Origin: Planctomycetota bacterium | GTDB lineage: Bacteria > Planctomycetota > Planctomycetia > Pirellulales > Thermoguttaceae | Length of the DNA: 27,828 nucleotides | Assembly: GCA_013202535.1 (NCBI GenBank) | Contig: JABMRP010000905.1 | Span: 1-27,828 of the forward strand | Direction: 5' to 3' | In this document: one piece after another, positions 2,762 to 25,530 of the stretch | How positions within the stretch are numbered: position 1 is the stretch's first letter | Layout of the letters: each line of letters begins with the position of its first letter | Notes under the pieces: model-generated | What the model saw: only the letters and a program-made list of their open reading frames with translations | Database searches by the model: none | What the model was told of the DNA's origin: nothing | Translations under genes and position numbers: made by a program

Positions 2762-5059
2762 ATGGCCACGGTCGTCGCCCTGGTGGCGTTGCGGCTGGGC
2801 CTTGGAACGCACTTCCTATACGAGGGAGTGTGGAAGGTAAAGCACGCCGACAAATTCTCGGCCGAGCCGTTTCTCACGCAGGCCAAAGGACCCGCCGCGC
2901 CGCTGTTCTACAAGCTGGCCAACGACATCGACGGTCGCGAGCGTTTGCAGCTTGTGAAGTCGGTCACGCCGGACGGCGTTTTGAAGCAATGGGAGAAAGC
3001 CCGGGCCACGGTCGAGAAGTCGCTGGCCACCCGGTTCTACGCCAACGGCATCAAGGTCGACGACCAGTACGCGGATTACCGAGCCGTCAAACGCGAGTTG
3101 GATCTGAAGAACCGCGAGATTAAGACCTACGAAGCGGAAACGGTCGAGCAGTGGAAGGTGTTGGCAAGCAAACTCGCCCAAGAAGAGAAGGCGTTTGACA
3201 ACGCATTCGATTATGCGATGGCCCAATGCACGGTCGTTGCCCAGGAACTCACCGCCGAGTTCGATGTGCAATGCGAGCAACTGACCGAGGAAATGCTTGC
3301 CCAACGCGCGGTCGTGATTGCCCTGAAAGCGGCCATCGCGGCGAAAGAGGAGGGTGCCGAAGAAAAGATGGGGCCGGCACGGGCGAAACTGATCGAACTG
3401 GAACAAGCCTTGGCGGCCGCTGAAGAAGCCCGCGAGAGCCAGGTTGCTGAAAAGCTGGCCACCATCCGCGACAGCGAGGAGCTCAAGGCCGCCGAACAGC
3501 GGATCGACACGACGAAAGAGGCCATGGCCGCGTATCGTGATGAGCGTGCCGGCTGTGCCGATTGCTCCGAGGGACTATTCACGTTGAAGGCCGACTTGGC
3601 GGAAATCGAGTTGCGACTGGAACCGTTGAAGAAGCCGTACGATGAGAAGCTGGCCCAGTTCAAGGCGGACACCGAAGAAGCCTACCTCGGCTACGAAGCG
3701 GAACTGCTCGCTCTGCTGGCAACCGATCGGGAAAAGCTGGTCGAGTACGTCGCCTCGATCGAAGAGGGCGCGAAAGAAAACCCGAAGGTCGTCTTGGACG
3801 GTGCCGGCAAGGAATGTCTCACCACAATCGCCGACATCGAAACCCGCTACCGCGAGAAGCTGGTTGCGTTGATCGAAACGCACGACACGCCGCCGGAAGT
3901 CGAGAAAGAAGAGCCGGGCCCGCTGGACTTGGTCGTGGCACTTGTTCCCGACCTGGAGGCGGAGGTCGAAGTAACCGTGGTCGAGAGCGAGATCGGTCTG
4001 GCCCCCGGCCGGAGCAAGTACGTCGCGAAGAAAGTGAAGTTCAACGGTCGCGATCTGCTGGTCGTGTCCGACGCGGTCGACAGCCAGCCGTTTGCCGACG
4101 CCTGCGATAGCTTGCTGGCGGAAGTCACCGAGACTTACAGCCTGAGCGAAGAGCAGCAAGCCAAGGCCCGACGGTTGGGCCGGCTGTACAAGCAGTCGCT
4201 ACGGCAATACCTGGACGATTACCTGATTGAGATCGGCACCCATTTCGCCACGCTGGATCGCTTCGAGAAGCAAAAGGCCGAGATTACCAACAACGCGCCC
4301 GAGCAGAAGAAGCGAGACTGGGACAAGCAGCAGGAGTTGCGCCGCGACGTCAAGGTCTGGCTTTCGGAAATGGACGGCATGGCCGCCGACTACAGAACGG
4401 GCTTGTGGGATCTGCTGGACGCCGATCAGCAGGCCAAGGGCCGTTTCGCCGAACCGTGGACCATGACGCGACTGACGGACTTCGCCGTGACCTGGGGTCT
4501 GTTTGCCATCGGGCTCTGCCTGATCCTCGGGCTGGGTACGAATTTCGCCTGCCTCGGCGGCGCGGCGTTCATGTTCTCGGTCATCTTGACCCAACCGGCC
4601 TGGCCCGGCATTTATCCACCGGCACCGCCCGTGGCCGGCCACGCCCTGTTGATCAACAAGGACTTCATCGAGATGCTCGCCCTGCTGGCCCTGGCCACCA
4701 CGGCCGTGGGCACTTGGGGTGGCCTGGACTATTTCCTCTGGAACAAGCTCCTGAAACCGCTCTGCTGCGGAAAGTGTTGTGGTAAAAAGGACGAAGAGGA
4801 GCAACAACCCCAGAGCCCCGAGTCGCGGAAGTTCCCGCCCTCGCCGGCCGACGAGATCCTGTCGCCGCCAGCGGACACGGGCAAACCCGACGTCGTCGAG
4901 ATCGACGACCCACCCGCCGCGGACGACGACGAACCGACCGAAATCGTCGTCGATATACCGGGCGAAAGCGAAGAGATTTTCGGCGATCCGGCCGACACGT
5001 CGATCGACGACGTCCTGAACGAAGAATCCCAAGACAATAACCTTCCGGAGGATAAATAA
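2762..5059 (+). CDS. DoxX-family membrane protein with a ~500-aa soluble helical insertion and an acidic tail
   Basis: N-terminal TM LRLGLGTHFLYEGVWK and C-terminal TMs GLCLILGLG, QPAWPG, NKDFIEMLAL and GLD match the DoxX pattern. The true start may be CTG at 2735. Confidence 0.82.
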   Translation: MATVVALVALRLGLGTHFLYEGVWKVKHADKFSAEPFLTQAKGPAAPLFYKLANDIDGRERLQLVKSVTPDGVLKQWEKARATVEKSLATRFYANGIKVDDQYADYRAVKRELDLKNREIKTYEAETVEQWKVLASKLAQEEKAFDNAFDYAMAQCTVVAQELTAEFDVQCEQLTEEMLAQRAVVIALKAAIAAKEEGAEEKMGPARAKLIELEQALAAAEEARESQVAEKLATIRDSEELKAAEQRIDTTKEAMAAYRDERAGCADCSEGLFTLKADLAEIELRLEPLKKPYDEKLAQFKADTEEAYLGYEAELLALLATDREKLVEYVASIEEGAKENPKVVLDGAGKECLTTIADIETRYREKLVALIETHDTPPEVEKEEPGPLDLVVALVPDLEAEVEVTVVESEIGLAPGRSKYVAKKVKFNGRDLLVVSDAVDSQPFADACDSLLAEVTETYSLSEEQQAKARRLGRLYKQSLRQYLDDYLIEIGTHFATLDRFEKQKAEITNNAPEQKKRDWDKQQELRRDVKVWLSEMDGMAADYRTGLWDLLDADQQAKGRFAEPWTMTRLTDFAVTWGLFAIGLCLILGLGTNFACLGGAAFMFSVILTQPAWPGIYPPAPPVAGHALLINKDFIEMLALLALATTAVGTWGGLDYFLWNKLLKPLCCGKCCGKKDEEEQQPQSPESRKFPPSPADEILSPPADTGKPDVVEIDDPPAADDDEPTEIVVDIPGESEEIFGDPADTSIDDVLNEESQDNNLPEDK

Positions 5060-5060
5060 C

Positions 5061-6770
5061 ATGAACCTGACCGACGAACAAAAAGCCATTGGCAAGGAAA
5101 ACTTCGATGCCGCCATTGGCGTGACCCGACGGAGTTTCCTCAAACGCAGCGTTGCCGCGGGTGTCGTCTCCGGCGGCGGATTGGGCGCTTTCTACTACGG
5201 CTACGGTAAAGCGGTCGACGATCCCGTGCGCGTGGGTGTCATCGGCACCGGCGACGAGGGGAGCGTGTTGATCGGGGCAATCAACCCGGACTTTGTCCAG
5301 GTCGTGGCCATCGCCGACATCCGCTCCTACAGTATCTACCGCGCCTTCCACGGCGACCGATACAGCGCCTCCGCGCAGAAGGCCCGTTGCGGGCTGCTGG
5401 CCAAGTACGGATGGAAAGACGAAACCGAAGCCCGCAAGACGGTCAAGGTCCACCATGACTACATGAAAGTGCTCGACGACCCGGACGTCGAGGCGGTGAT
5501 CATCGCCCTGCCCTTGCATCTGCACGCCGAAGTGGCCATCGAGGCTATGCGCAAGGGTAAGCATGTGCTGACCGAGAAACTGATGGGCAAGACCATCGCC
5601 CAGTGCAAGGACATGGCCCGGGTGTCGGCCCAGGAAGACAAATACCTGGTCACCGGCCACCAACGCCACTACAACATTCTTTACGCCAACGCGATGGATA
5701 CGATCCAGAACAACCTGCTGGGCGATATCCACTACATTCGCGCCCAGTGGCACCGCGGCAACGTGCCGGGCAACGATAGCTGGAAGAAGCCGCTACCGCC
5801 CGGGTTCGGCGATACCGCGGGCGAGGCCGCCCTGCTTTCCAAGCTCGAGAGCTGGCAGAACAAGCTCAAGTCGGTCAAGGGCCGCGAGATCGAGGTCTGG
5901 AAGAAGAAGGTCGCCCAGGTCGAGGCCCAGATCGCCGATCGCGTGATTTTCGAGGGCGAGCCGAGTGACGCCGAGAAATACGGCTACAAGGCCTATTCGG
6001 AAGGATATTCCGAGAAGATTCCCGCCATGGGCGAATTGATCCGCTGGCGGCTGTTCAACCGCACCGGCGGCGGCCTGATGGCCGAGCTGGGAAGCCACCA
6101 GTTGGATGCCGCCGGCATCTTCATCTCGGCCATGCACGAGGGCAAGAAACAGGCTCCGCTGACGGTGGCCGCGGCGGCCAACCGGCCCATCTTCCCCGCC
6201 GACCGCGACGTCGACGACCACGTCTACTGCATCATCGAATTCCCCGGTCCCAACTACGAGAGCAACCCCCGCGATAAGATCGGCGTGACCTATTCGTCGA
6301 TCAACGGCAACGGTTTCGGCGGTTACGGCGAAGTGGTGATGGGCACCAAGGGAACGCTGATCCTGGAAAAAGAAAAGGACGTGATGCTGTTCGGCGGTTC
6401 GATCGGCAGCAGGATCAAGGTGACCGAATCGGCCACTTCGGGTCCCACGATGGATACCCAGGAGAGCGGTGACGCGCAGGCAGCAGTCGAGACGGTGACC
6501 GCCCCCGACGTCAGCCGCGGTTACCTCGAAGAGATCGAGCACTGGGCGTGGTGCATCCGCAACCAGGCGCCCGAGAACCAGCCCCGCTGCCATCCCAAGG
6601 TGGCTCTGGGCGACGCGGTCATCGCGCTGACGACCAACATCGCCGCCCGACAGGGTAAGCGGATCGAGTTCAATCCGAAATGGTTCGATCCGAACGAGAA
6701 CGCCACGCCGGAGGCCGAGTTCATCGACGCCAAGCTCGCTCCCCAGGAAGAGCCGGCCAAGAAGGCGTAG
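5061..6770 (+). CDS. Gfo/Idh/MocA-family NAD(P)-dependent oxidoreductase with a twin-arginine (Tat) signal
   Basis: TRRSFLK followed by a hydrophobic stretch; VGVIGTGDEG; HVLTEKLM; GHQRHY; GGLMAELGSHQLD. Starts 1 nt after the DoxX stop. Confidence 0.92.
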   Translation: MNLTDEQKAIGKENFDAAIGVTRRSFLKRSVAAGVVSGGGLGAFYYGYGKAVDDPVRVGVIGTGDEGSVLIGAINPDFVQVVAIADIRSYSIYRAFHGDRYSASAQKARCGLLAKYGWKDETEARKTVKVHHDYMKVLDDPDVEAVIIALPLHLHAEVAIEAMRKGKHVLTEKLMGKTIAQCKDMARVSAQEDKYLVTGHQRHYNILYANAMDTIQNNLLGDIHYIRAQWHRGNVPGNDSWKKPLPPGFGDTAGEAALLSKLESWQNKLKSVKGREIEVWKKKVAQVEAQIADRVIFEGEPSDAEKYGYKAYSEGYSEKIPAMGELIRWRLFNRTGGGLMAELGSHQLDAAGIFISAMHEGKKQAPLTVAAAANRPIFPADRDVDDHVYCIIEFPGPNYESNPRDKIGVTYSSINGNGFGGYGEVVMGTKGTLILEKEKDVMLFGGSIGSRIKVTESATSGPTMDTQESGDAQAAVETVTAPDVSRGYLEEIEHWAWCIRNQAPENQPRCHPKVALGDAVIALTTNIAARQGKRIEFNPKWFDPNENATPEAEFIDAKLAPQEEPAKKA

Positions 6771-14526: not shown

Positions 14527-14594
14527 GTGGGCTCCCAGGGTGAGACCTCGTCCCCATGCTCTGGACCGTGACCCTGCCGGTCCACTTGACTTCA

Positions 14595-14723
14595 CTACTG
14601 AGCCCGCCAGAACTTCGCCACCTGACCGAAGATCGGTATGGTCCAGGGCAAGCTCATCACCATCGAGCCGCCGATCAGCAGGGTGATGATTCCCAGCAGT
14701 CGGCAAATGTACGGCTTGTTCAT
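14595..14723 (-). pseudogene. trkH: Truncated 5' fragment of a TrkH potassium-uptake gene (42 codons)
   Basis: Manual translation (below the ORF-track cutoff): MNKPYICRLLGIITLLIGGSMVMSLPWTIPIFGQVAKFWRAQ followed by two stops. It resembles the first TM of TrkH (MN...RLLG..LLIGGSM..SLPW), as recalled from planctomycete TrkH sequences. Confidence 0.65.
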
Positions 14724-14791
14724 TGGTGGCTATGCCATGATTACGCTGGGGTGCCCCGGCAAATCACAGAACGACCCGGTGGGCGCCCAAG

Positions 14792-14820
14792 AGTGTATCA
14801 CCCCTCAATATGGCTGGCAA
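14792..14820 (-). promoter_or_regulatory. Sigma70 promoter upstream of the trkH fragment
   Basis: Minus strand TTGCCA-N17-TACACT with an extended -10 TG, about 70 nt before ATG 14723. Confidence 0.6.
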
Positions 14821-14948: not shown

Positions 14949-14964
14949 CGGCACGGAATGTGCT
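14949..14964 (+). promoter_or_regulatory. Candidate sigma54 -24/-12 promoter pointing into the island
   Basis: CGGCACG-GAAT-GTGCT, with GG at 14950-51 and GC at 14962-63 at the exact spacing. Confidence 0.45.
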
Positions 14965-15251: not shown

Positions 15252-15716
15252 ATGAAGCTCATCGTGTCGGAAATGGTGAAAACCCGCATGGGGCTCCTAC
15301 AATCGAATGCAAACGACGCCGAGGTGGCCTACGAACAGGCACTGGATGATGGAGTAGAAGATCCGGTTGTCTGCTTACTTGATATCCGAGACCCACAGGT
15401 CGCCATGCTCGCGGAAGCCTATGTGCGAGAGGAAGGCAAAGTCCGGCAAGCGATTGACGACTGCGTCGCCAAAGAGGCGATCCCGATTGCAGTCGTCGCT
15501 CTCCCGCACGGCAACGCCGTCGAACTCATGGACGCCGTTTTCCAAGGTGCCGGAGGTGCGTGGCCGACCACAATCCCGTGCGGGTGCTTTCGCATCGTCG
15601 TCATCGCTTTTGGTGGATACACGCACCGGACACACCCTGAGCCGGTAAAGAGTTGGTGGAAGTTGAGTATACCCGGGCTTCCGGCTCACGACCGTGAGCG
15701 GCCAAGCCGGGATTAG
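15252..15716 (+). CDS. Hypothetical protein
   Basis: Protein-like composition from MKLIVSEM (EDPVVCLLD...FRIVVIAFGG), with AGGA 8 nt upstream. The upstream part of ORF 14958 looks non-coding. Confidence 0.6.
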   Translation: MKLIVSEMVKTRMGLLQSNANDAEVAYEQALDDGVEDPVVCLLDIRDPQVAMLAEAYVREEGKVRQAIDDCVAKEAIPIAVVALPHGNAVELMDAVFQGAGGAWPTTIPCGCFRIVVIAFGGYTHRTHPEPVKSWWKLSIPGLPAHDRERPSRD

Positions 15717-15982
15717 CGTGCTTTTGTTTCGGCAGGCGGTTCCGGCCGCGACATCATCGTTGCGGTCGGCACATCCACAAGGCACTTCAAGAACCTCGGC
15801 ATGTTGAGTGTTGTTCTTCTATTTGAGGCCAAGGAAGAGTCCGAATGTACCTTGAGCGATGGGCATTTCATTCCCGCATACATCTCGGACCGCACATACC
15901 TGCTTATTGGGATTGGGGCTGGACCCGAGCCCGGCGGAACGATCATAAGGAGCGAATGGCTTCGCGGCCTTGCGCATAACCA

Positions 15983-18127
15983 ATGAATCGGATTCTCCCA
16001 TTTCTTGGCTGGTTCAAAGACTACCGGAAGGCGGACCTCAGGGCAGACCTTGTCTCCGGAGTGACGGTGGCATTGGTCCTGATTCCGCAATCCATGGCCT
16101 ATGCCCAACTCGCGGGACTCCCTCCATACTATGGCCTTTACGCCTCTTTCTTTCCGCCAATGGTCGCAGCTTTGTTCGGCTGCAGTCGGCAACTGGCCAC
16201 CGGACCGGTTGCGGTGGTCTCCCTCATCACGGCGGCCTCGCTGGAACCGCTCGCGACGGCCGGCAGCTCCGGCTACATCGCTTATGCAATCACGCTCGCC
16301 TTGACGGTCGGAGTATTTCAGTTTGCCTTGGGCGTGTTGAGGCTGGGAGTGGTCGTGAACTTCCTCTCCCACCCCGTCGTCAGTGGATTCACCAACGCCG
16401 CGGCGATCATCATTGCCACCTCTCAACTGTCCAAGTTCTTCGGCGTCCACGTGGACAAGGCCGAGCACCACTACGAGACGATCGGCCGCGTAATCGTCGC
16501 GGCATGGCACTATACTCACTGGCCGACTCTTGGCATGAGTATCCTGGCGCTGATGATCATGTACGGCCTGAAACGGACCTACCCCAGGATTCCCTATGTT
16601 CTGGTGGCCGTCGTTGTGACTTCCGTGATCGCTTGGGCAACCGAATTCGAGCAAAGGCATCATGTTCCGCTTTCGTCCATTATTTCTCCTGAAGTTCGAG
16701 AGTTAGTCCAAAGCTACAATGATTCGACGGTCAAGATGGAGGAGCTTTCGGCCACGCGAACGGCGATGAATCATGAGTTGGCGGCGATCAAGAGAAGTGC
16801 GGGAGATGACTCTCTTGAGTACCTTCACGTCAAGCACGAGGTGGATGCGGCGAATATCCAGATCTATAAGACTAAGGCCTTGACTTGTTCTTACCGGCAT
16901 GAGTTGCGATCATTCCTGTTTACGGGCGTCGTGGAACCTGACGAGTCCCTGCGATTCCATCTTGCCGCCGATGAACTCGCGGATGACCGCGGCGACGGCC
17001 GGACGTGGCGTCTGGCCGTGGGCAACGGGGCTTTTGATAACGGCTCGGTTACCATGACGTCCGGTGGCGCGGTCGTCGGGGCCATTCCCGGGGGGCTTCC
17101 CACGCTGGCCATGCCAAAGTTCAGCATACAAGAGTTTCTCGCCTTGTTGCCGTCGGCGGTGATTATCTCGTTGCTTGGTTTCATGGAAGCAATCTCGATT
17201 GCAAAAGCCATGGCCGCGAAGACCGGGCAGGTGCTCGACCCCAACCAGGAGTTGATTGGGCAAGGGCTGGCGAATATCGTGGGCTCGATCGGTCAGAGCT
17301 ACCCCACCTCCGGCTCGTTTTCCCGGTCCGCCGTCAATTTGCAGTCCGGCGCGGTGTCGGGGTTATCGAGTGTCATCACGAGCATCGCGGTCGCGGTCAC
17401 CCTTCTCCTGTTCACACCCTTGCTGTACCATCTTCCCCAGGCAACCCTGGCAGCGATCATCATGATGGCCGTGATCGGCCTGGTAAGTGTCACCAGTTTC
17501 GTTCACACGTGGCAGACCCACCGGATCGACGGTGGCATTCAAATCATATCGTTTGTTGCCACGCTGGCCTTTGCGCCGCATCTCGACCGAGGTATCATGA
17601 TCGGTGTCGCGCTTTCCCTGACGTTCTATCTCTATAAAGGTATGAAGCCTAACGTCGCCCGTCTATCGCTCAGTGCGGACGGCACGTTTCGCGACGCGGA
17701 ATACTGGGGACTCAGAGAGTGTATTCACATTTCCATGATTCGTTTTGATGCGAGTCTGTTCTTCGCCAATGCAAGTTACTTTGAAGATCTGGTTAACGAA
17801 AGAGTCACGACACTTCCGGAGCTTCGGCACATCCTCCTGGTTGCCAACGGCATCAACGACATGGATGCATCTGGTGAAGACGCGCTGGCCTTGGCCGTGG
17901 ACAACGTGAGAGCCGCGGGCATCGAGTTCTCGATGAGCGGCATTAAGGAGAATGTTCTCGCGCTAATGAAGCGGACACATCTTTACGAGAAGATCGGCGA
18001 GGAAAACATCTTTCCGAGCCAGCCCACGGCTATCAGGACGATTTGGGGCGCGGCCCATCAGGGATCGGAAGAGAAGCGATGCCCTTTAGAGGTGGTCTAT
18101 ATCCTTGAAGAATGTGGTGGAGACTGA
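15983..18127 (+). CDS. sulP: SulP/SLC26 anion permease with STAS domain and an inserted loop domain
   Basis: IPQSMAYAQLAGLP, GLYAS, TGPVAVVSL, NQELIGQG, GSFSRSA and STAS motif DASLFFANA...INDMDASG. Confidence 0.95.
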   Translation: MNRILPFLGWFKDYRKADLRADLVSGVTVALVLIPQSMAYAQLAGLPPYYGLYASFFPPMVAALFGCSRQLATGPVAVVSLITAASLEPLATAGSSGYIAYAITLALTVGVFQFALGVLRLGVVVNFLSHPVVSGFTNAAAIIIATSQLSKFFGVHVDKAEHHYETIGRVIVAAWHYTHWPTLGMSILALMIMYGLKRTYPRIPYVLVAVVVTSVIAWATEFEQRHHVPLSSIISPEVRELVQSYNDSTVKMEELSATRTAMNHELAAIKRSAGDDSLEYLHVKHEVDAANIQIYKTKALTCSYRHELRSFLFTGVVEPDESLRFHLAADELADDRGDGRTWRLAVGNGAFDNGSVTMTSGGAVVGAIPGGLPTLAMPKFSIQEFLALLPSAVIISLLGFMEAISIAKAMAAKTGQVLDPNQELIGQGLANIVGSIGQSYPTSGSFSRSAVNLQSGAVSGLSSVITSIAVAVTLLLFTPLLYHLPQATLAAIIMMAVIGLVSVTSFVHTWQTHRIDGGIQIISFVATLAFAPHLDRGIMIGVALSLTFYLYKGMKPNVARLSLSADGTFRDAEYWGLRECIHISMIRFDASLFFANASYFEDLVNERVTTLPELRHILLVANGINDMDASGEDALALAVDNVRAAGIEFSMSGIKENVLALMKRTHLYEKIGEENIFPSQPTAIRTIWGAAHQGSEEKRCPLEVVYILEECGGD

Positions 18128-18137
18128 GGAGAGACGG

Positions 18138-19385
18138 ATGTCCGTAGTTACGGTGTTTAGCGGTACCTATTGCCGTGGTGATGAAATCACCGGAGGAGTC
18201 GTCGAGGCGCTCGGTTGCGAATTGCTTGACGATGCATACGTCATCCATGAGGCGTCCAAGCGTTTTGGCATCGCAGAGAACAAGCTCATGCGAACGCTTG
18301 CCGGCGGATTGTCCATCTTCAACCGTTTTACGCACGAAAGAGAACGACATGCGAGCTGCCTGAAACTGGTGGTTGCGGAAACCATGAAGAGAGATCGAAT
18401 TGTTCTCTCGGGCTTCTGTGGCCAACTCGTTCCAGCCGACCTGTCTCATGTACTGAGCGTCTGCATCATCGCAGACATCGGGTATCGCTGCGACTTGGCC
18501 ATGCAAACACTCGGCGTCTCCGAGAAGGAGGCGCGGAGGACCATCCAAGAGAGTGATGAAATGAGCACGCGGTGGACCGACTTCGTCTTGGGGAAATCTC
18601 CTTGGGATTCGGACATCTACGATGTATTCATACCGACCAATCGGGTAGAAGTCGACGAAGCCGTGAAGCTGGTCTGTCGCAATGCCCATAGCGGCGCACT
18701 CGTGCCCACGGAAGACTCCCTGCGGGCGGTGGATGATTTCATTCTTGCAGCGCAAGTGGAAGTCATGCTGGGCACAAGGGGGCATGACGTTGCCGTCTCC
18801 GCCAGAGGCGGCAACGTGACATTGGTAATAAACAAGCACACCGTCTTGCTCTCCCGCTTGGAAGGGGAGTTGAAGCGCATCGCCCAGGACGTCGAAGGAG
18901 TAAAGGACGTCGAGACCAAGGTCGGGCCGGGGTTTTACCAACCGGGAGTCTACCGGCAGTTCAACCCGGAGTTGCCCAGTAAGGTCCTCTTGGTGGACGA
19001 CGAGAAGGAGTTCGTGGAAACGTTGTCGGAACGACTCGAAATGCGAGACATGGGCTCGACCGTTGTCTACAGCGGCGAGCAGGCCCTGTCTCTGGTCCGG
19101 GAAGAAGAGCCGGAAGTGATGGTGTTGGATCTTCGAATGCCCGGCGTGAATGGGATCGAAGTCCTCCGAGAAATCAAGCAGACGCACCGGCACGTCGAGG
19201 TGATCGTGCTCACCGGCCACGGTTCCAAGAAGGACGAGGAGACGTGTATGAAACTGGGCGCATTTGCCTACCTGCAAAAGCCGGTCGATATCGAGAAGCT
19301 TTCTCGTACCATGCGGGAAGCCTACGAAGAAGTGAAGGCGAAACAGAAGAAGCCCCGCGTGAATCGCGCAAAGGAAGGTGAATAA
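18138..19385 (+). CDS. Cytidylate-kinase-like + BON + receiver-domain protein
   Basis: N-terminal VVTVFSGTYCRG and YDVFIPT; BON-like AAQVEVML...VEGVKDV; C-terminal receiver LLVDDE...VLDLRMP...LTGHG...QKP. GAGGAG precedes ATG 18138. Confidence 0.85.
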   Translation: MSVVTVFSGTYCRGDEITGGVVEALGCELLDDAYVIHEASKRFGIAENKLMRTLAGGLSIFNRFTHERERHASCLKLVVAETMKRDRIVLSGFCGQLVPADLSHVLSVCIIADIGYRCDLAMQTLGVSEKEARRTIQESDEMSTRWTDFVLGKSPWDSDIYDVFIPTNRVEVDEAVKLVCRNAHSGALVPTEDSLRAVDDFILAAQVEVMLGTRGHDVAVSARGGNVTLVINKHTVLLSRLEGELKRIAQDVEGVKDVETKVGPGFYQPGVYRQFNPELPSKVLLVDDEKEFVETLSERLEMRDMGSTVVYSGEQALSLVREEEPEVMVLDLRMPGVNGIEVLREIKQTHRHVEVIVLTGHGSKKDEETCMKLGAFAYLQKPVDIEKLSRTMREAYEEVKAKQKKPRVNRAKEGE

Positions 19386-20182
19386 TGTCTATCATCACAA
19401 TTTCCAGAGGATCGTACAGCAGAGGAAAGGAGGTGGCTGAGAAGGTCGCTCAAAGGCTGGGCTACGAATGCCTCTCCCGCGACGTCATCATTGAAGCCTG
19501 TGACGAGTACAATGTGCCGGAAATCAAATTGGTCCGGGCCATTCAATACGCCCCATCCATTCTGGAACGTTTCACGGGAGGGAAATTGCGGTTTCTCGCC
19601 TACTTTCAGGCTGCTCTCATGGAGCATTTCCAGAGGGACAACGTGGTATACCACGGCCTGGCCGGCCACTTCTTCGTCAAGAATATCCCGCACGTGCTCA
19701 AGGTCCGGATCATTGCCGAGATGGAAGATCGTGTTAAACTTGAAATGAAGCGCGAGGGGATCTCGGCGAGAGAGGCGTTACGGATCCTGAGCAGCGATGA
19801 CGACGAACGAAGAAAATGGAGCCGCTACGCTTTTGGAATCGACACTTGGGATCCCTCTTCGTACGATCTCGTCCTCCATATCAAGAAGCTTACCGGCGAC
19901 GAGGCGGCGGACTTGATTTGCCACACGGTTGCCCTGGAACACTTTCACGCAACCCCCCAATCGCAACAGGCGATGGACAACCTGACGGTTGCCGCAAGGG
20001 TGAAAGCCGCTTTGATCGACCGGAAGCCGGAAGTCGAAGTATCCGCGGAGAACGGAGTTGTCCGCGTGAAGATCAAGAGTTCACAACTTCGAGAGGAATG
20101 GCGCATTGAGAAACTTGCCAAGGCTGTTCCAGGCGTGCAACAAGTCCAGATCGAGGCGCAAGAAATCAGCCTCACACCGTGA
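19385..20182 (+). CDS. Cytidylate-kinase-like + BON protein
   Basis: IITISRGSYSRGKEVA, LKVRIIAEMEDRV, DDDERRKW and YDLVL; BON-like AARVKAAL...VPGVQQV. TAATG overlap with the previous gene. Confidence 0.87.
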   Translation: MSIITISRGSYSRGKEVAEKVAQRLGYECLSRDVIIEACDEYNVPEIKLVRAIQYAPSILERFTGGKLRFLAYFQAALMEHFQRDNVVYHGLAGHFFVKNIPHVLKVRIIAEMEDRVKLEMKREGISAREALRILSSDDDERRKWSRYAFGIDTWDPSSYDLVLHIKKLTGDEAADLICHTVALEHFHATPQSQQAMDNLTVAARVKAALIDRKPEVEVSAENGVVRVKIKSSQLREEWRIEKLAKAVPGVQQVQIEAQEISLTP

Positions 20183-20206
20183 ATTCATGCGTGATAGGCA
20201 TCGCCG

Positions 20207-21925
20207 ATGAATACAGATTCGCCGAGCAAACCGATTCCTGTCTCGCGCAGTGAGCGCGATCCGAAGGGAGGGTTTCATGCCCACTATCGCCGGCTCTGGT
20301 TGTATTCCGTCTGCGTCACGGCCTTCGTGTCGTTGACGCCCCTGGTGATTTTCACCTGGGTGAACTTCTACCAGTACAGAAAAGCACTCCGGGAGGAGGT
20401 GATTCATCCGATTTCCCGGCTCGCGTCCATCTCGAGACGATTCATGGATGATTTCCTTGAGGAGCGTCGGGCGGCGCTGACCTATGTGGCCCGACGTGAA
20501 TCGTATGAGGACCTATGCGATCGGGAGAAACTCAGCCGCACGCTCATGGACATGAAAGAGTCGTTCGGTGGTTTCGTCGATCTGGGGGTGATTGACTCAG
20601 ACGGGAATCAGCGATCCTACGCGGGACCTTATGAACTGGAGGGGCTGAACTACAAGGAACAAGACTGGTTCGAGGAGGTCTGTGTTCGAGGGATCCACGT
20701 AAGCGACGTCTTCCGCGGCTACCGCAACTTGCCCCACTTCGTGGTCGCCGTCCGGCAGCACGACATCGAGAACGGGAACTTCTACATCGTTAGAGCGACC
20801 ATCGACGCGGAAGTACTCAACTCGTACATTTCCTCACTTGACCTCAAACCGTCGAGCGATGTCTTCCTCATCAACCGGAAAGGTGTGTTGCAGACCGCGT
20901 CGCGTCACAATGGGGCGGTCTTGGACCAGTGCCCCATGGCAGTTCCGCCCTTCTCGTCAAGAACGGAAGTACTGGAAACAGCCGGCGAGAAGGGAGAGCC
21001 CGGAATTCTCGCGTATGCCTATATCGAACACTCGCCATTCATCTTCGTTGTCCTGAAGCATCCGGAACACGTTATGGAAAGCTGGTTGCTCGTTCGAAGC
21101 AATATCCTCTGGTTTTTAGGTACGAGTATTGTTCTTATCGTGGTCGTCATACTCTGGAGTTCGACGGCCCTGGTTAACCGCATCCGGGACGCGGATCACA
21201 GGCACGACAACACCCTTCATGCGATTGCATACACCAACAAGATGGCTTCCATCGGCAGGATGGCGGCGGGCGTGGCCCACGAGATAAACAATCCTTTGGC
21301 CATTATCAATGAGAACGCCGGCCTGCTCAAGGATCTGGTTTCCATCGACGATAAACCACTCGAAAGGGATCGGCTCCTGAGAATGGCTGAGAAGGTCATC
21401 CGATCCGTGGTGAGATGCAGCAGCATCACCCACCGCCTGCTGGGCTTTGCCAAGAGGATGGATCCTGCGATCGAACGTTTCGCGCTCGGGCCTCTTCTTG
21501 AGGAAATATTGAGTTTTTTCGGCAAAGAGACGGAGTACCGCAGGATAGCCGTCAACTTCGACGTCCCGGAGGATCTGCCAATGGTCGAGAGTGACCTTGG
21601 GCAACTCCAGCAAGTGTTCCTGAATATCTTGAGCAACGCTTTTGCCGCGGTTGCCGAGGGAGGGCAGGTCGACATTTCCGTGGAGGCGGTGGACGAAAAC
21701 ATGGTCACGGTCAGGATCCATGACAACGGCGTCGGAATCCCCGAGGAGCACATTGACCATATCTTTGAACCCTTCTTCAGCACCAAGGGCGAGTACGGTA
21801 CCGGACTGGGCCTTTCCATAACGTATGGCATTGTCGAGAACCTGGAAGGCCGGATAGCCGTTCAGAGCACGGTCGGCGAAGGCACCACCTTCACCGTGCT
21901 GCTGCCTATTGCGATGCGGAGATAA
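20207..21925 (+). CDS. Sensor histidine kinase with two TMs and a Cache-type sensor domain
   Basis: TM1, then Cache-like GVIDSDG...YAGPY...WF...SDVFRGYRNLPHF, then TM2; H box GVAHEINNP, N box QVFLNILSNA, DNGVG, FFSTK, GTGLGL. Confidence 0.93.
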   Translation: MNTDSPSKPIPVSRSERDPKGGFHAHYRRLWLYSVCVTAFVSLTPLVIFTWVNFYQYRKALREEVIHPISRLASISRRFMDDFLEERRAALTYVARRESYEDLCDREKLSRTLMDMKESFGGFVDLGVIDSDGNQRSYAGPYELEGLNYKEQDWFEEVCVRGIHVSDVFRGYRNLPHFVVAVRQHDIENGNFYIVRATIDAEVLNSYISSLDLKPSSDVFLINRKGVLQTASRHNGAVLDQCPMAVPPFSSRTEVLETAGEKGEPGILAYAYIEHSPFIFVVLKHPEHVMESWLLVRSNILWFLGTSIVLIVVVILWSSTALVNRIRDADHRHDNTLHAIAYTNKMASIGRMAAGVAHEINNPLAIINENAGLLKDLVSIDDKPLERDRLLRMAEKVIRSVVRCSSITHRLLGFAKRMDPAIERFALGPLLEEILSFFGKETEYRRIAVNFDVPEDLPMVESDLGQLQQVFLNILSNAFAAVAEGGQVDISVEAVDENMVTVRIHDNGVGIPEEHIDHIFEPFFSTKGEYGTGLGLSITYGIVENLEGRIAVQSTVGEGTTFTVLLPIAMRR

Positions 21926-21928
21926 TCG

Positions 21929-22294
21929 ATGAAACAGCTTAAGATACTGCTCGTTGACGATGAAGAGGACTTGACTTCCACCATGGTGGAACGTCTCGGA
22001 CTTCGCGACTTTCAGGTTGAGGCGGCCACTAGCGGGATCGACGCACTGAAACGCGTAAGCGAGGGAGATTTCGACGTGCTCGTCCTCGACGTCAAAATGC
22101 CCGGAATCGGCGGCCTGCAAGTGATGGCGGAGATCAAGCGCCAACACCTGGATCTCCCGGTCATCCTGCTTACCGGTCACGGCTCCGCCGCCGATGCTGA
22201 AAGAGGGATGAAAGAGGGAGCTTCCGACTATCTTATGAAGCCAATCGACATCGACACACTGGTCGAGAAGATCCGCAACGCGGTGCAATCATAA
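21929..22294 (+). CDS. Stand-alone response regulator (receiver only)
   Basis: LLVDDE, VLDVKMP, LLTGHG and LMKP. Confidence 0.92.
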   Translation: MKQLKILLVDDEEDLTSTMVERLGLRDFQVEAATSGIDALKRVSEGDFDVLVLDVKMPGIGGLQVMAEIKRQHLDLPVILLTGHGSAADAERGMKEGASDYLMKPIDIDTLVEKIRNAVQS

Positions 22295-22307
22295 CGGAGG
22301 ATTGGTT

Positions 22308-22739
22308 ATGGCAAATGAGAAAGTGTTGCTGGTGGATGATGAACGAGAATTCACGCAAATACTCTCGGAACGAATGGTGTCCAGAGGTGTCGACGTCGAT
22401 ACCGCGGCAAGCGGAAGTGAGGCCGTCCAGAAGGCGAAGGATGCATCGTACGATGCGATTATCCTTGATCTTGCCATGCCGGAGATGGATGGGATTGACA
22501 CGCTGAAGCGTCTGCTGGAGATGAACGCCGACCTGCAAGTGATTTTGTTGACGGGTTACGCCACCGTTCAGAAGGGCAGCGAGGCCATTGAGCTCGGCGC
22601 AATGGATTTCCTGGAAAAGCCCACCGAGATTCATAAACTCATGGAGATGATCCAGCGGGCCAAGGCCAACAAGATGCTGCTTGTCGAGAAGCAGTCCGAG
22701 GAGAGAATCAAGGGTGTATTGGAGCCCAAGGAGCGGTAG
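22308..22739 (+). CDS. Stand-alone response regulator with a short helical tail
   Basis: LLVDDE, ILDLAMP, LLTGYA and LEKP; GGAGG 7 nt before ATG 22308. Confidence 0.92.
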   Translation: MANEKVLLVDDEREFTQILSERMVSRGVDVDTAASGSEAVQKAKDASYDAIILDLAMPEMDGIDTLKRLLEMNADLQVILLTGYATVQKGSEAIELGAMDFLEKPTEIHKLMEMIQRAKANKMLLVEKQSEERIKGVLEPKER

Positions 22740-22825
22740 GCCTTTCTTTTCTTCCGCGTCGACTTTGAGCCTCACCCGATTCGTTGTGGAATACGCTATC
22801 GTCTTGGACGATGGAGATTGGCCGT

Positions 22826-24181
22826 ATGTTTCGTGATCGTTCCAGGGCCCCCCGGCGGGCGATGTTATTGGCGATGATCGGCGTGTTGGTGGCCGTTGTG
22901 TTGGCGGTAGCCATGACGGTTTGGCTGGTTTTCGAAGTGCGCAAGGAACAACAGGCCATTGCCGAACTACTCCGTGACGAATCCGGCTCCGTTAACACTC
23001 GGGTAAGTGCTTTGCCGGCTGAATTGCGAATACAACTAGTGTTCTCGATCCTGGTGCTCGCCGTCCTGGTCGTGGCTGCCATTGCTTTACTGCGGGTTTT
23101 CCTCGCATATCTGGCGAGCCAGAAGAGTTTGCATGAAGTCAAGAATCTCTCCTGGAACATATTCGCCAGCATGGACCGTGCGGTCGTGACGACCGACTGT
23201 CACGGTCTGATTACGAGCATGAATCCAGCCGCATACACACTGCTGCACATTGGCTCGGAATGCGTTGGGCAACCACTGACAGACATCAGCACGAACGAGG
23301 TGTCCCTGGATCGACTCAGTCACCAAGTCCTGCAATCGAATAACCCCGTCCGTGATTGCGAGTACTCCGTCGTACGGGGCCCACGGAAGCATCGGCTACG
23401 AATTGACTGCCATTTGCTGGTCGATACTGACAAGAGAGTCTTTGGGACCGCGTTGTATGTACGCGACATAACGGACCGCATACTGGTGGGAGAACGTATC
23501 CGGCGAATGGAACGTTTCCTCGGACTGGGATCACTTGCCGCCGGCTTGCAGCATGAGATCAAGAACCCTCTGAGCGCCTTGTCTCTCCACGTTCAACTAC
23601 TCGAAGAGCACTTGCAGGGCGAATCGGACGCGGAAGTTACCGAGGATCTTGGCGTATTGAAAACAGAGATGAGGCGAATCAGTGGAGTTTTGGAGAGTTT
23701 TCAGGATTTTGCCACGCTTGACACACTCAACCGCTCGGTGACCGGCATCGCCCAGATTGTGCGGCGGACCGTGCGCCTTGTCCGGCCGCAGGCCGAAGGC
23801 CAAAATGTTCAGATCGCAGTAGCGACACCTACAGGCGAACTCCCGCCAGTCTCCGTTGATGTTGCCAAATTAGAGCAAGTCCTCTTGAATATCATCCTCA
23901 ACGCACTTGAAGAAATGCCTACCGGCGGACAGTTGAAAATCCATCTGGGCCACGATGAGGATACGGCGTGGATTGAAATCACGGACACGGGTCCCGGTAT
24001 CCCGGAGAAAGTCCAGCCCCGGATTTTCGACCCGTATTTTACGACCAAGAGCGAAGGCTCGGGGATGGGACTTGCCGTGTGCGAGAAAATCATCCAACAG
24101 CATTCCGGCCAGCTTGACTTTGACACGGGGCCAAACGGCACCACTTTTCGCCTTTCTCTGCCAGCGGAACCGGTCTCATGA
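22826..24181 (+). CDS. PAS-domain sensor histidine kinase (NtrB-like)
   Basis: Two TMs, PAS (AVVTTDCHGLITSMNPAA), H box GLQHEIKNP, N box LNIILNA, DTGPG, YFTTK and GSGMGL. Start uncertain (22784, 22811 or 22826). Confidence 0.92.
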   Translation: MFRDRSRAPRRAMLLAMIGVLVAVVLAVAMTVWLVFEVRKEQQAIAELLRDESGSVNTRVSALPAELRIQLVFSILVLAVLVVAAIALLRVFLAYLASQKSLHEVKNLSWNIFASMDRAVVTTDCHGLITSMNPAAYTLLHIGSECVGQPLTDISTNEVSLDRLSHQVLQSNNPVRDCEYSVVRGPRKHRLRIDCHLLVDTDKRVFGTALYVRDITDRILVGERIRRMERFLGLGSLAAGLQHEIKNPLSALSLHVQLLEEHLQGESDAEVTEDLGVLKTEMRRISGVLESFQDFATLDTLNRSVTGIAQIVRRTVRLVRPQAEGQNVQIAVATPTGELPPVSVDVAKLEQVLLNIILNALEEMPTGGQLKIHLGHDEDTAWIEITDTGPGIPEKVQPRIFDPYFTTKSEGSGMGLAVCEKIIQQHSGQLDFDTGPNGTTFRLSLPAEPVS

Positions 24182-25530
24182 ATACAAACGGGATTCGGAT
24201 TCTGGTTGTTGATGACGAGCCGAACGTGCGGGCGGGCTTGGCCAAGGGCCTCCGCGGCGACGAGACGTCGGTTGAGACGGCAAAGGACGGGACCGAGGCG
24301 TTGCAGAAGTTTGAAAATGCCGGGCACCAAATCGTCATTACCGATGTTCGGCTGCCGGGGAAGCTGGATGGCCTTCACCTTCTGAAGATGTTTCGCGACA
24401 GACGCCCGGAGACCTTGGTAATCGTGATTACCGCGTACGACACAATCGACATGGCCGTGGAGGCCATGCGGCTTGGTGCCTATGACTTCGTCACCAAGCC
24501 GGTGGACTTGAACCTCATCCGCCTACAGGTCCGGAAGGCCGCGGAACATCGCCGTCTCGTATTGGAAAACCGGCAACTTCGCGATCGCCTTGCGGGAACG
24601 GGCGAGGATCTTGAAATCATCGGCAATTGTGCAGCCACGCGAGAGCTCCTTCGCCAGATTCGCCAGGTGGCTGAAACCGACGCTACCGTTCTGATTCACG
24701 GGGAGAGCGGCACCGGTAAGGAACTGACCGCCAGGGCGATCCATCGTTTCAGTCCGCGACAGCAACGCCCGTTCGTCACGGTCCATCTGGGAGCGCTTCC
24801 CGAGACGCTGCTCGAAAGCGAATTGTTTGGCCACGAGAAAGGGGCCTTTACCGACGCCCGCAGCCGAAAAATTGGCCATTTCGAGGCGGCTAACGGCGGC
24901 ACGCTATTCCTCGATGAAATTACGGAGACGTCGGCTAAGAGCCAGGTCGACTTGCTTCGCGTAATCGAGCATCAGGAGTTCCGGCGTCTCGGCGGAAACG
25001 AGTTGATCTCCTGCGATGTTCGCATTGTTGCGGCGACCAATAGCGATATTCGGGATCTGGTACACGCCGGCAAGTTTCGGGAGGATCTATACTATCGACT
25101 CGACGTCATCCCCCTGCAAATCCCGTCCCTGCGCGAGCGCCGTGAAGACATACCTTTGCTTGTCGAACATTTTGCCCGGCATTTATGCCAGCGCCACCAA
25201 CGCCACATTAAGCGATTTGCGAACGAAGCGATGCAAGTCCTTGCGAGCCATAGCTGGCCGGGCAACATCCGACAGATCCGCAATCTGGTGGAACGTCTCG
25301 TCGTTACCGTGGACGGTGACGTGATCCATGCCGAAGACCTCCCAAATGAAATGCGGACGCACCCTCGGCAAATCGAGAAGACGCTGGAGGCGGCCGTGGA
25401 AGCTACGGAAAGGCAGGTGATCGTCGCCGCATTGGCTGAGTGTGACAACCATCGCGAACGTACCGCCAAGCGACTCGATATCAGCGTCCGTACCCTCCAC
25501 TACAAGATGCGTCGCTACGGTCTTCATTGA
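24178..25530 (+). CDS. Sigma54-dependent response regulator (REC-AAA+-Fis HTH; NtrC/AtoC family)
   Basis: Receiver (ITDVRLP), Walker A GESGTGKE, ESELFGHEKGAFTDA, FLDEI, FREDLYYRL, WPGNIRQ and C-terminal HTH. ATGA overlap with the kinase. Confidence 0.95.
   Translation: MNTNGIRILVVDDEPNVRAGLAKGLRGDETSVETAKDGTEALQKFENAGHQIVITDVRLPGKLDGLHLLKMFRDRRPETLVIVITAYDTIDMAVEAMRLGAYDFVTKPVDLNLIRLQVRKAAEHRRLVLENRQLRDRLAGTGEDLEIIGNCAATRELLRQIRQVAETDATVLIHGESGTGKELTARAIHRFSPRQQRPFVTVHLGALPETLLESELFGHEKGAFTDARSRKIGHFEAANGGTLFLDEITETSAKSQVDLLRVIEHQEFRRLGGNELISCDVRIVAATNSDIRDLVHAGKFREDLYYRLDVIPLQIPSLRERREDIPLLVEHFARHLCQRHQRHIKRFANEAMQVLASHSWPGNIRQIRNLVERLVVTVDGDVIHAEDLPNEMRTHPRQIEKTLEAAVEATERQVIVAALAECDNHRERTAKRLDISVRTLHYKMRRYGLH

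Follow-up and report, generated by a model that had tools for sequence, protein, structure and literature searches.

A Planctomycetota gene set for SulP, a receiver fusion and a dCache kinase is a lineage variant of an operon widespread in sulfate-respiring lineages

The window analyzed here, a stretch of 27,828 nt from a Planctomycetota bacterium (Thermoguttaceae; assembly GCA_013202535.1, contig JABMRP010000905.1), carries six adjacent genes encoding a SulP-STAS permease, a cytidylate-kinase-like/BON-like/receiver fusion (CKREC), a cytidylate-kinase-like protein with a BON-like domain (CKBON), a dCache sensor histidine kinase and two single-domain receivers (REC1 and REC2). This six-gene set is the Planctomycetota-type, lineage variant of a widespread operon of sulfate-respiring lineages. 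It is a two-component relay tied to a transporter, in a variant arrangement and in an important ecological context, with a putative mechanism. Dissimilatory sulfate reduction, a major route of carbon mineralization in anoxic sediments, begins with the uptake of sulfate, and to our knowledge the regulation of this step is essentially unknown. The features of the set, with lengths in amino acids (aa) and model-based assignments taken from AlphaFold 2 (AF2), are as follows.

15983..18127, + strand: SulP-STAS permease, 714 aa (PF00916, PF01740, TIGR00815)
16670..17068, + strand: insert of ~133 aa (residues ~230-362) in the loop between transmembrane helices 7 and 8 (TM7-TM8) of SulP (alignment breaks, AF2 model)
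17624..18127, + strand: cytoplasmic STAS domain and conserved C-terminal tail of SulP (PF01740 at residues 583-679; 49-homolog alignment)
18138..19385, + strand: CKREC, 415 aa (PF13189, PF00072)
19385..20182, + strand: CKBON, 265 aa (PF13189, AF2 model)
20207..21925, + strand: dCache sensor histidine kinase (PF02743, PF00512, PF02518)
21929..22294, + strand: REC1, single-domain receiver, 121 aa (PF00072, 105.7 bits)
22308..22739, + strand: REC2, single-domain receiver, 143 aa, with a C-terminal helical tail of ~25 aa (PF00072, 99.3 bits)

An earlier reading made from the sequence alone (the sequence-only reading) had described six tightly packed, co-oriented genes with gaps of 10, -1, 24, 3 and 13 nt, and the open reading frame (ORF) coordinates reproduced this layout exactly. 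Pfam annotation agreed with its further statement that the set holds a single kinase and three receivers, none of them with a domain for DNA binding or for a recognized enzymatic output. One point needs correction: the first receiver and the first kinase-like/BON protein form one fusion, CKREC. Homologs of CKREC begin with MS.I..FSG, which supports a start at the ATG of position 18138 over the alternative TTG at 18105. In one pairwise comparison, with the relative at locus L041, all eight genes compared were under purifying selection, with ratios of nonsynonymous to synonymous substitution rates (dN/dS) of 0.07 to 0.49. The weakest constraint fell on CKREC (0.34) and REC2 (0.49), a ranking that, with one pair only, is suggestive.

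Conservation of the set was assessed by a scan for CKREC in one genome per species, which gave 80 loci that were then annotated with domain queries from the window. These loci came mostly from Desulfobacterota and also from Nitrospirota, Acidobacteriota, Ignavibacteria, Planctomycetota and a few metagenome-assembled genomes of Proteobacteria. The canonical order was SulP, CKREC, dCache kinase, receiver, a protein of ~220 aa and a second receiver. SulP was directly upstream of CKREC in 62 of the 66 loci with enough sequence, and the kinase, the ~220-aa protein and at least one receiver followed within 5.2 kb downstream in 47 of 52 loci. The spacer from SulP to CKREC had a median of 18.5 nt and the kinase-receiver pairs mostly overlapped, with starts set heuristically. 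In a sample of 401 Desulfobacterota genomes, CKREC was found in 43 and the insert-bearing SulP in 48, with both present in 39 and adjacent in 34. The neighborhood search and the genome sample together bear out the proposal that the gene set is conserved as a unit. A chance juxtaposition of six genes was ruled out by the presence of the same gene set in more than 60 species-level genomes.

Compared with the canonical operon, the variant in the window has lost the ~220-aa protein and gained CKBON. CKREC is the signature partner of the insert-bearing SulP, whereas CKBON is an accessory outside the canonical operon: a CKBON paralog was present in 2 of 36 full loci, and elsewhere the homologs stand alone in varied contexts, one of them adjoining a gene for adenosine 5'-phosphosulfate (APS) kinase.

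The ~220-aa protein matched no Pfam family at the gathering threshold (HisKA at E 2e-4). Its S-H-E-I-K-N box contains an invariant His, a further motif, R-F-A-H-S-x-D, is also conserved, and the ATP-binding N, G1 and G2 motifs have been lost altogether. Its profile aligned across both halves of the kinase cores of ThkA, ZraS and KinB, at E values from 1e-12 to 1e-7, and homology to the kinase core encoded in the window is detectable as well. We read it as a putative kinase-derived histidine phosphotransferase (the carrier), Spo0B- or ChpT-like in its working, and because of this reading the canonical operon is probably a His-Asp-His-Asp relay without DNA-binding output. The idea that the protein is a diverged CKBON was rejected, as it matches kinase cores and not PF13189.

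The carrier gene, present in 48 of 52 other loci, is absent from the 87%-identical relative L041 and from the window, where the gap between REC1 and REC2 is 13 nt and so leaves no such gene. On a Planctomycetes contig that is less closely related (L129), the set comprises seven genes, with CKBON and a carrier protein of 218 aa both among them. Because L129 carries both and neither the window nor L041 has the carrier, the window lineage appears to have lost the carrier after gaining CKBON. Contig C831 of the same genome (L125, 1164-5950) bears a second set of receiver, dCache kinase and carrier-like genes, and this second set, with its paralogous carrier, could act in trans. The C831 set directly follows helix-turn-helix/IrrE-like and DUF4411 (PIN-like) genes that resemble a toxin-antitoxin pair, and the contig ends 470 nt beyond.

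The dCache kinase of the window is arranged as TM1, periplasmic dCache domain, TM2, dimerization and histidine phosphotransfer (DHp) domain and ATP-binding domain, and has no HAMP domain. Its H-box is intact, and the N, G1, F and G2 motifs were read in the translation. All three receivers keep the acidic pair, the phospho-accepting Asp, the Thr and the Lys. Best matches identify REC1 and REC2 as orthologs of two canonical receivers, REC1 of the one encoded directly after the kinase and REC2 of the one encoded after the carrier. Across the 80 loci the receivers are ~115 to 165 aa long and have no DNA-binding domain.

The permease matched PF00916 at 355.3 bits in two stretches and the sulP model TIGR00815 at 445.8 against a cut-off of 380.45, and its scores against the equivalog models for DauA and BicA were far under their cut-offs. 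Among solved structures its best relative is AtSULTR4;1, a sulfate transporter from a plant (7lhv; E 4e-95). A PF00916 search of the genome, which is 79% complete, revealed no second SulP. Alignments with 7lhv and with Pfam both break at residues 229 and 363, facing a linker of 2 to 3 residues in AtSULTR4;1, so that the short TM7-TM8 linker of solved SLC26 members is replaced by an insert of ~133 aa. The insert is a trait of the subfamily, kept in 66 homologs over ~155 aligned residues. In an AF2 model of SulP residues 222-378, with a predicted local distance difference test (pLDDT) score of 90.1 and helices at positions 15-52 and 57-89, it forms a short strand, two antiparallel helices of ~35 residues in a coiled-coil hairpin and a small beta sheet. 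Because the established topology of SLC26 proteins combines a 7+7 inverted repeat with an N terminus in the cytoplasm, the insert is predicted to face the periplasm. Fold searches with Foldseek against the Protein Data Bank (PDB), against the AlphaFold clusters and with VIA-align wide found no specific fold match for the insert, returning generic coiled-coil hairpins and one homologous SulP only. The hairpins of the membrane fusion proteins AcrA, MacA and HlyD were considered and set aside, their resemblance being weak and not significant.

The cytoplasmic STAS domain of the permease matched PF01740 at 48.7 bits against a cut-off of 22.6. Invariant residues in the 49-homolog alignment of this region are C33, H145 and C153-P154-L155, in the numbering of the aligned region. 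In CKREC, Cys12 is near-invariant and His104 and Cys109 are conserved, and these residues and the Cys, His and Cys-Pro-Leu residues of the permease could form a metal or redox site within either protein or between the two. In one relative (L031; G208:C122, 13648-17376) the SulP reading frame runs on through four tandem STAS domains instead of one.

CKREC, whose homologs number in the thousands, matched PF13189 at 77.6 bits (cut-off, 28) and PF00072 at 99.3 bits. Its P-loop is degenerate, with Asp or Glu at the Lys position and the consensus F-S-G-x-x-C-x-G-E-E in the homolog alignment, and the DD, D, T and K residues of its receiver are invariant among the homologs. CKBON matched PF13189 more strongly, at 148.2 bits against the same cut-off, and has a G-x4-G-K loop in which G9, G14 and K15 are invariant in 56 homologs and the next residue is Glu, not Ser or Thr. 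It also keeps LID-like Asp and Arg residues. The AF2 model of CKBON (pLDDT 85) shows a nucleotide-kinase fold that matches the PF13189 structures 3hdt and 3fdi (TM-score 0.8 by target) as well as cytidine monophosphate (CMP) and dephospho-CoA kinases. By sequence the BON domain (PF04972) is below threshold in both proteins, at 20.8 bits in CKBON and 14 bits in CKREC against a cut-off of 27. The C terminus of CKBON, modeled as an alpha-beta-beta-alpha-beta fold, matched BonA at E 5e-4, and OsmY matched the BON region by sequence at E 0.003. A BON-like domain of this type binds phospholipid in DolP (PMC7806268).

The genomic context points to dissimilatory sulfur metabolism. The window's genome has a dsrA gene scoring 574.7 bits against a cut-off of 392.85 and a fragment of aprA that is truncated where its contig stops; the dsrA and aprA-fragment sites are on contigs C316 (534-1703) and C1280 (20-967), loci L131 and L138. 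Judged from these genes, the organism may be a dissimilatory sulfate or sulfite reducer. In a sample of 401 genomes of the window's phylum, CK/BON proteins occurred in 8, dsrA above the cut-off in 8 and both in 6, and all four genomes with the SulP-CKREC module were among those six. In two genomes a CKBON homolog lies 7 to 17 kb from dsrA on one contig (G252:C4:46196-55256 and G327:C1:9441-27691), a hint that CKBON proteins encoded on their own are, as a family, part of dissimilatory sulfur metabolism in general. The dsrA/aprA context and the co-occurrence of CK/BON proteins with dsrA support a predicted role for this SulP in the uptake of sulfate, or a related sulfur oxyanion, for dissimilatory metabolism.

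Next, we considered how the components might work together. With moderate confidence, we favor a reading in which signaling from the kinase to the receivers tunes SulP post-translationally through CKREC, where the steps beyond gene composition and conservation are those that we infer. The output would most simply be the transporter, because the core set consists of signaling proteins and one transporter and contains no receiver able to bind DNA. CKREC would be the obvious adaptor, because it is tied to SulP in gene order and combines a phosphorylatable receiver with a pseudo-kinase domain and a BON-like domain. In this scheme the periplasmic dCache domain would sense an anion outside the cell, with sulfate or a related oxyanion as the probable ligand, and the kinase would phosphorylate the receivers. 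In the canonical operon the phosphate would pass via REC1 and the kinase-derived His carrier to REC2, to CKREC or to both; in the window variant, which has lost the carrier, the transfer would be direct or would run through the carrier paralog encoded on C831. Once phosphorylated, CKREC, which its BON-like domain would keep at the membrane, would act on the STAS domain or the cytoplasmic face of SulP, gating or tuning uptake and bypassing transcription. CKBON may contribute an input of nucleotide or energy state.

Several points weigh against this reading. The physical contact that it calls for is putative, and the sole complex prediction, of STAS with CKREC from our own 49-row alignments, gave a score of 0.00, which speaks neither for nor against binding. 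The Cache ligand and the SulP substrate are predicted only. The carrier gene is absent from the window, so that the flow of phosphate there may depart from the canonical scheme. Related genomes are not independent, and the co-occurrence counts overstate significance accordingly. Finally, the contigs with dsrA and aprA are short and the bin has 3% contamination, making mis-binning possible.

A more specific form of the favored reading, which we put forward tentatively, is a phosphorelay-gated SLC26 complex: the pseudo-kinase/BON regulator would dock on STAS and switch uptake, while the periplasmic hairpin would touch the dCache domain, so that sensor and effector would form one complex. The SulP hairpin may reach as far as the dCache domain.

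The sequence-only reading had proposed a different flow of information, in which SulP acts as a co-sensor, as DctA or DcuB does for DcuS: STAS and the kinase-like/BON proteins would read the SulP flux and couple it to the Cache kinase, with output to the sigma54 pair encoded downstream. These neighbors, which are not part of the core set, are as follows.

22784..24181, + strand: PAS histidine kinase (Pfam)
24178..25530, + strand: NtrC-type sigma54 response regulator (Pfam)

The conserved periplasmic hairpin of SulP beside a periplasmic dCache domain that is always co-encoded would suit a co-sensor, and the sigma54 two-component pair is directly downstream in both the window and L041. However, of the 36 loci with complete flanks, 12 have a sigma54 activator of any kind at a distance of up to 10 kb, with differing architectures, and the other two thirds have none; the N-terminal sensor part of the PAS kinase found a match only in L041 among 86 loci; and the NtrC-type regulator has its own cognate-looking kinase, the PAS kinase, whose gene it overlaps by 4 nt. 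The proposed output to the sigma54 pair was therefore not upheld, and the pair is a set of lineage-specific neighbors, not a conserved partner. The canonical operon has no DNA-binding output and hence nothing for a co-sensor to control, and because it lacks transcriptional output we favor control of the transporter and regard the co-sensor model as rather unlikely. Under the favored reading, the sigma54 pair would be a separate, lineage-specific transcriptional layer.

Transcriptional control is also the output proposed in a recent genomic and proteomic study (PMC11887813; Sci Adv 2025), which describes clusters of SulP and DASS genes with Cache kinases in Desulfobacteraceae. In this model the Cache kinase senses external sulfate and the response regulators, there called "WalR type," control transcription of the transporter in a PhoR/PhoB-like manner; the paper gives a genomic and proteomic outline and reports no experiments on the signaling proteins. 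The reported conservation of these clusters and the constitutive abundance of the SulP protein (PMC11887813) are in its favor, as is the sigma54 regulator adjoining the operon in the window. Against it, neither the receivers of the window nor those of the 80 surveyed loci carry a DNA-binding domain, and the sigma54-type promoter (TGGCAC-N5-TTGCW, at most 2 mismatches) was found at 12 sites in the window against 11.5 expected, with none in the 266 nt before SulP (15716-15983). Scans for sigma70 promoters and terminators gave background levels, and promoter conservation was uninformative because the upstream DNA is 95% identical to that of L041. We consider this model somewhat less probable than the co-sensor model.

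Least probable of all is that the kinase-like proteins are true enzymes, for instance nucleotide kinases or APS-related kinases, switched by the receiver so as to control a metabolite pool instead of the transporter: the invariant G-x4-G-K loop and LID-like Asp and Arg of CKBON, its fold match to CMP and dephospho-CoA kinases and the stand-alone homolog beside an APS kinase gene would agree with it, but CKREC, the universally SulP-linked member, lacks the loop lysine, CKBON is missing from most operons and no activity is known for 3hdt or 3fdi, its closest relatives of solved structure. Judged by these sequence features, an enzymatic role is unlikely for CKREC and possible for CKBON.

The favored reading, control of the permease by a relay through CKREC, shares features with several known systems and differs from each. 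The cluster of PMC11887813 is alike in combining SulP, a Cache kinase and response regulators kept in sulfate reducers, and two Desulfosarcina genomes in our survey (L083 and L121) carry the same operon as the one described here. The kinase-like/BON/receiver fusion, the kinase-derived carrier and the SulP insert are not described in that paper, and its cluster includes a TetR repressor. The window differs in its phylum, in having lost the carrier and gained CKBON, and in having no TetR gene among the ORFs scanned. In Marietou et al. 2018 (PMC5840216) the signaling genes are not mentioned. A literature search revealed no functional study of the operon, in agreement with the sequence-only reading; PMC11887813 points out SulP/DASS clusters with Cache kinases in sulfate reducers. 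Likewise, no functional study was found in the literature that links SulP with a cytidylate kinase, or a cytidylate kinase-like protein with a response regulator and sulfate.

In gene order, with a kinase, a lone receiver, a ~220-aa relic that keeps the DHp His and is blind to ATP, and further receivers, the canonical operon resembles the relays Spo0F-Spo0B-Spo0A of Bacillus and CckA-ChpT-CtrA/CpdR of Caulobacter. However, no sequence match to Spo0B or ChpT was found for the carrier, whose origin is in the kinase subfamily of the operon itself. The terminal acceptors, moreover, lack a domain for DNA binding, and the carrier is absent from the window. The systems DctA/DcuB-DcuS and BceAB-BceS likewise co-encode a transporter and a sensor kinase, and contact between the two is plausible here. 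Those systems end in a DNA-binding regulator, whereas the core set here has none and has a receiver fusion beside the transporter gene. As with DauA, whose STAS domain pairs with acyl carrier protein, and with SpoIIAA/SpoIIAB, a regulatory partner is likely to dock on the STAS domain in the cytoplasm; the candidate partner here is a pseudo-kinase of P-loop fold joined to a BON-like domain and a receiver, not a GHKL kinase or an acyl carrier protein. The structural genomics entries 3hdt and 3fdi, which match the kinase-like domain best both in fold and in sequence, are single-domain Firmicutes proteins of no known function, without BON or receiver.

The operon occurs in about one-tenth of the sampled Desulfobacterota genomes and also in dsrA-bearing members of other phyla. 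If the permease is gated directly, it would represent a new class of response-regulator output, control of an SLC26 protein through STAS, and two large families of orphan proteins would gain a function, that of the PF13189/BON proteins and that of the ~220-aa carrier of kinase origin. If the phosphorelay-gated SLC26 complex exists, it would be an undescribed form of control over the first step of dissimilatory sulfate reduction. The carrier-less natural variant in the window offers a comparison for the rewiring of relays.

Some features of the flanking DNA and of other loci were also observed. In seven Desulfobacterota loci (L039, L046, L053, L054, L060, L062 and L126), a receiver-less PAS-sigma54 activator and a small Nitro_FeMo-Co-like protein are encoded directly upstream of the dCache kinase, and this pair may be a recurrent transcriptional layer unlike the one in the window. 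Upstream of SulP in the window, a sigma54-like -24/-12 element, GGCACG-N5-GTGC, was noted at 14949-14964 with 2 mismatches, not above chance. About 290 nt downstream of this element is an ORF of 154 codons (15253-15716) without a Pfam match, and in L041 the gene caller predicts this ORF as well, immediately ahead of SulP. Between cheY and the SulP block, L041 has an intact TrkH gene of 518 aa (4899-6455), of which the window keeps a stump only (14530-14820). The GC content of the SulP block is 55-57%, against 60-65% in the left flank of the window.

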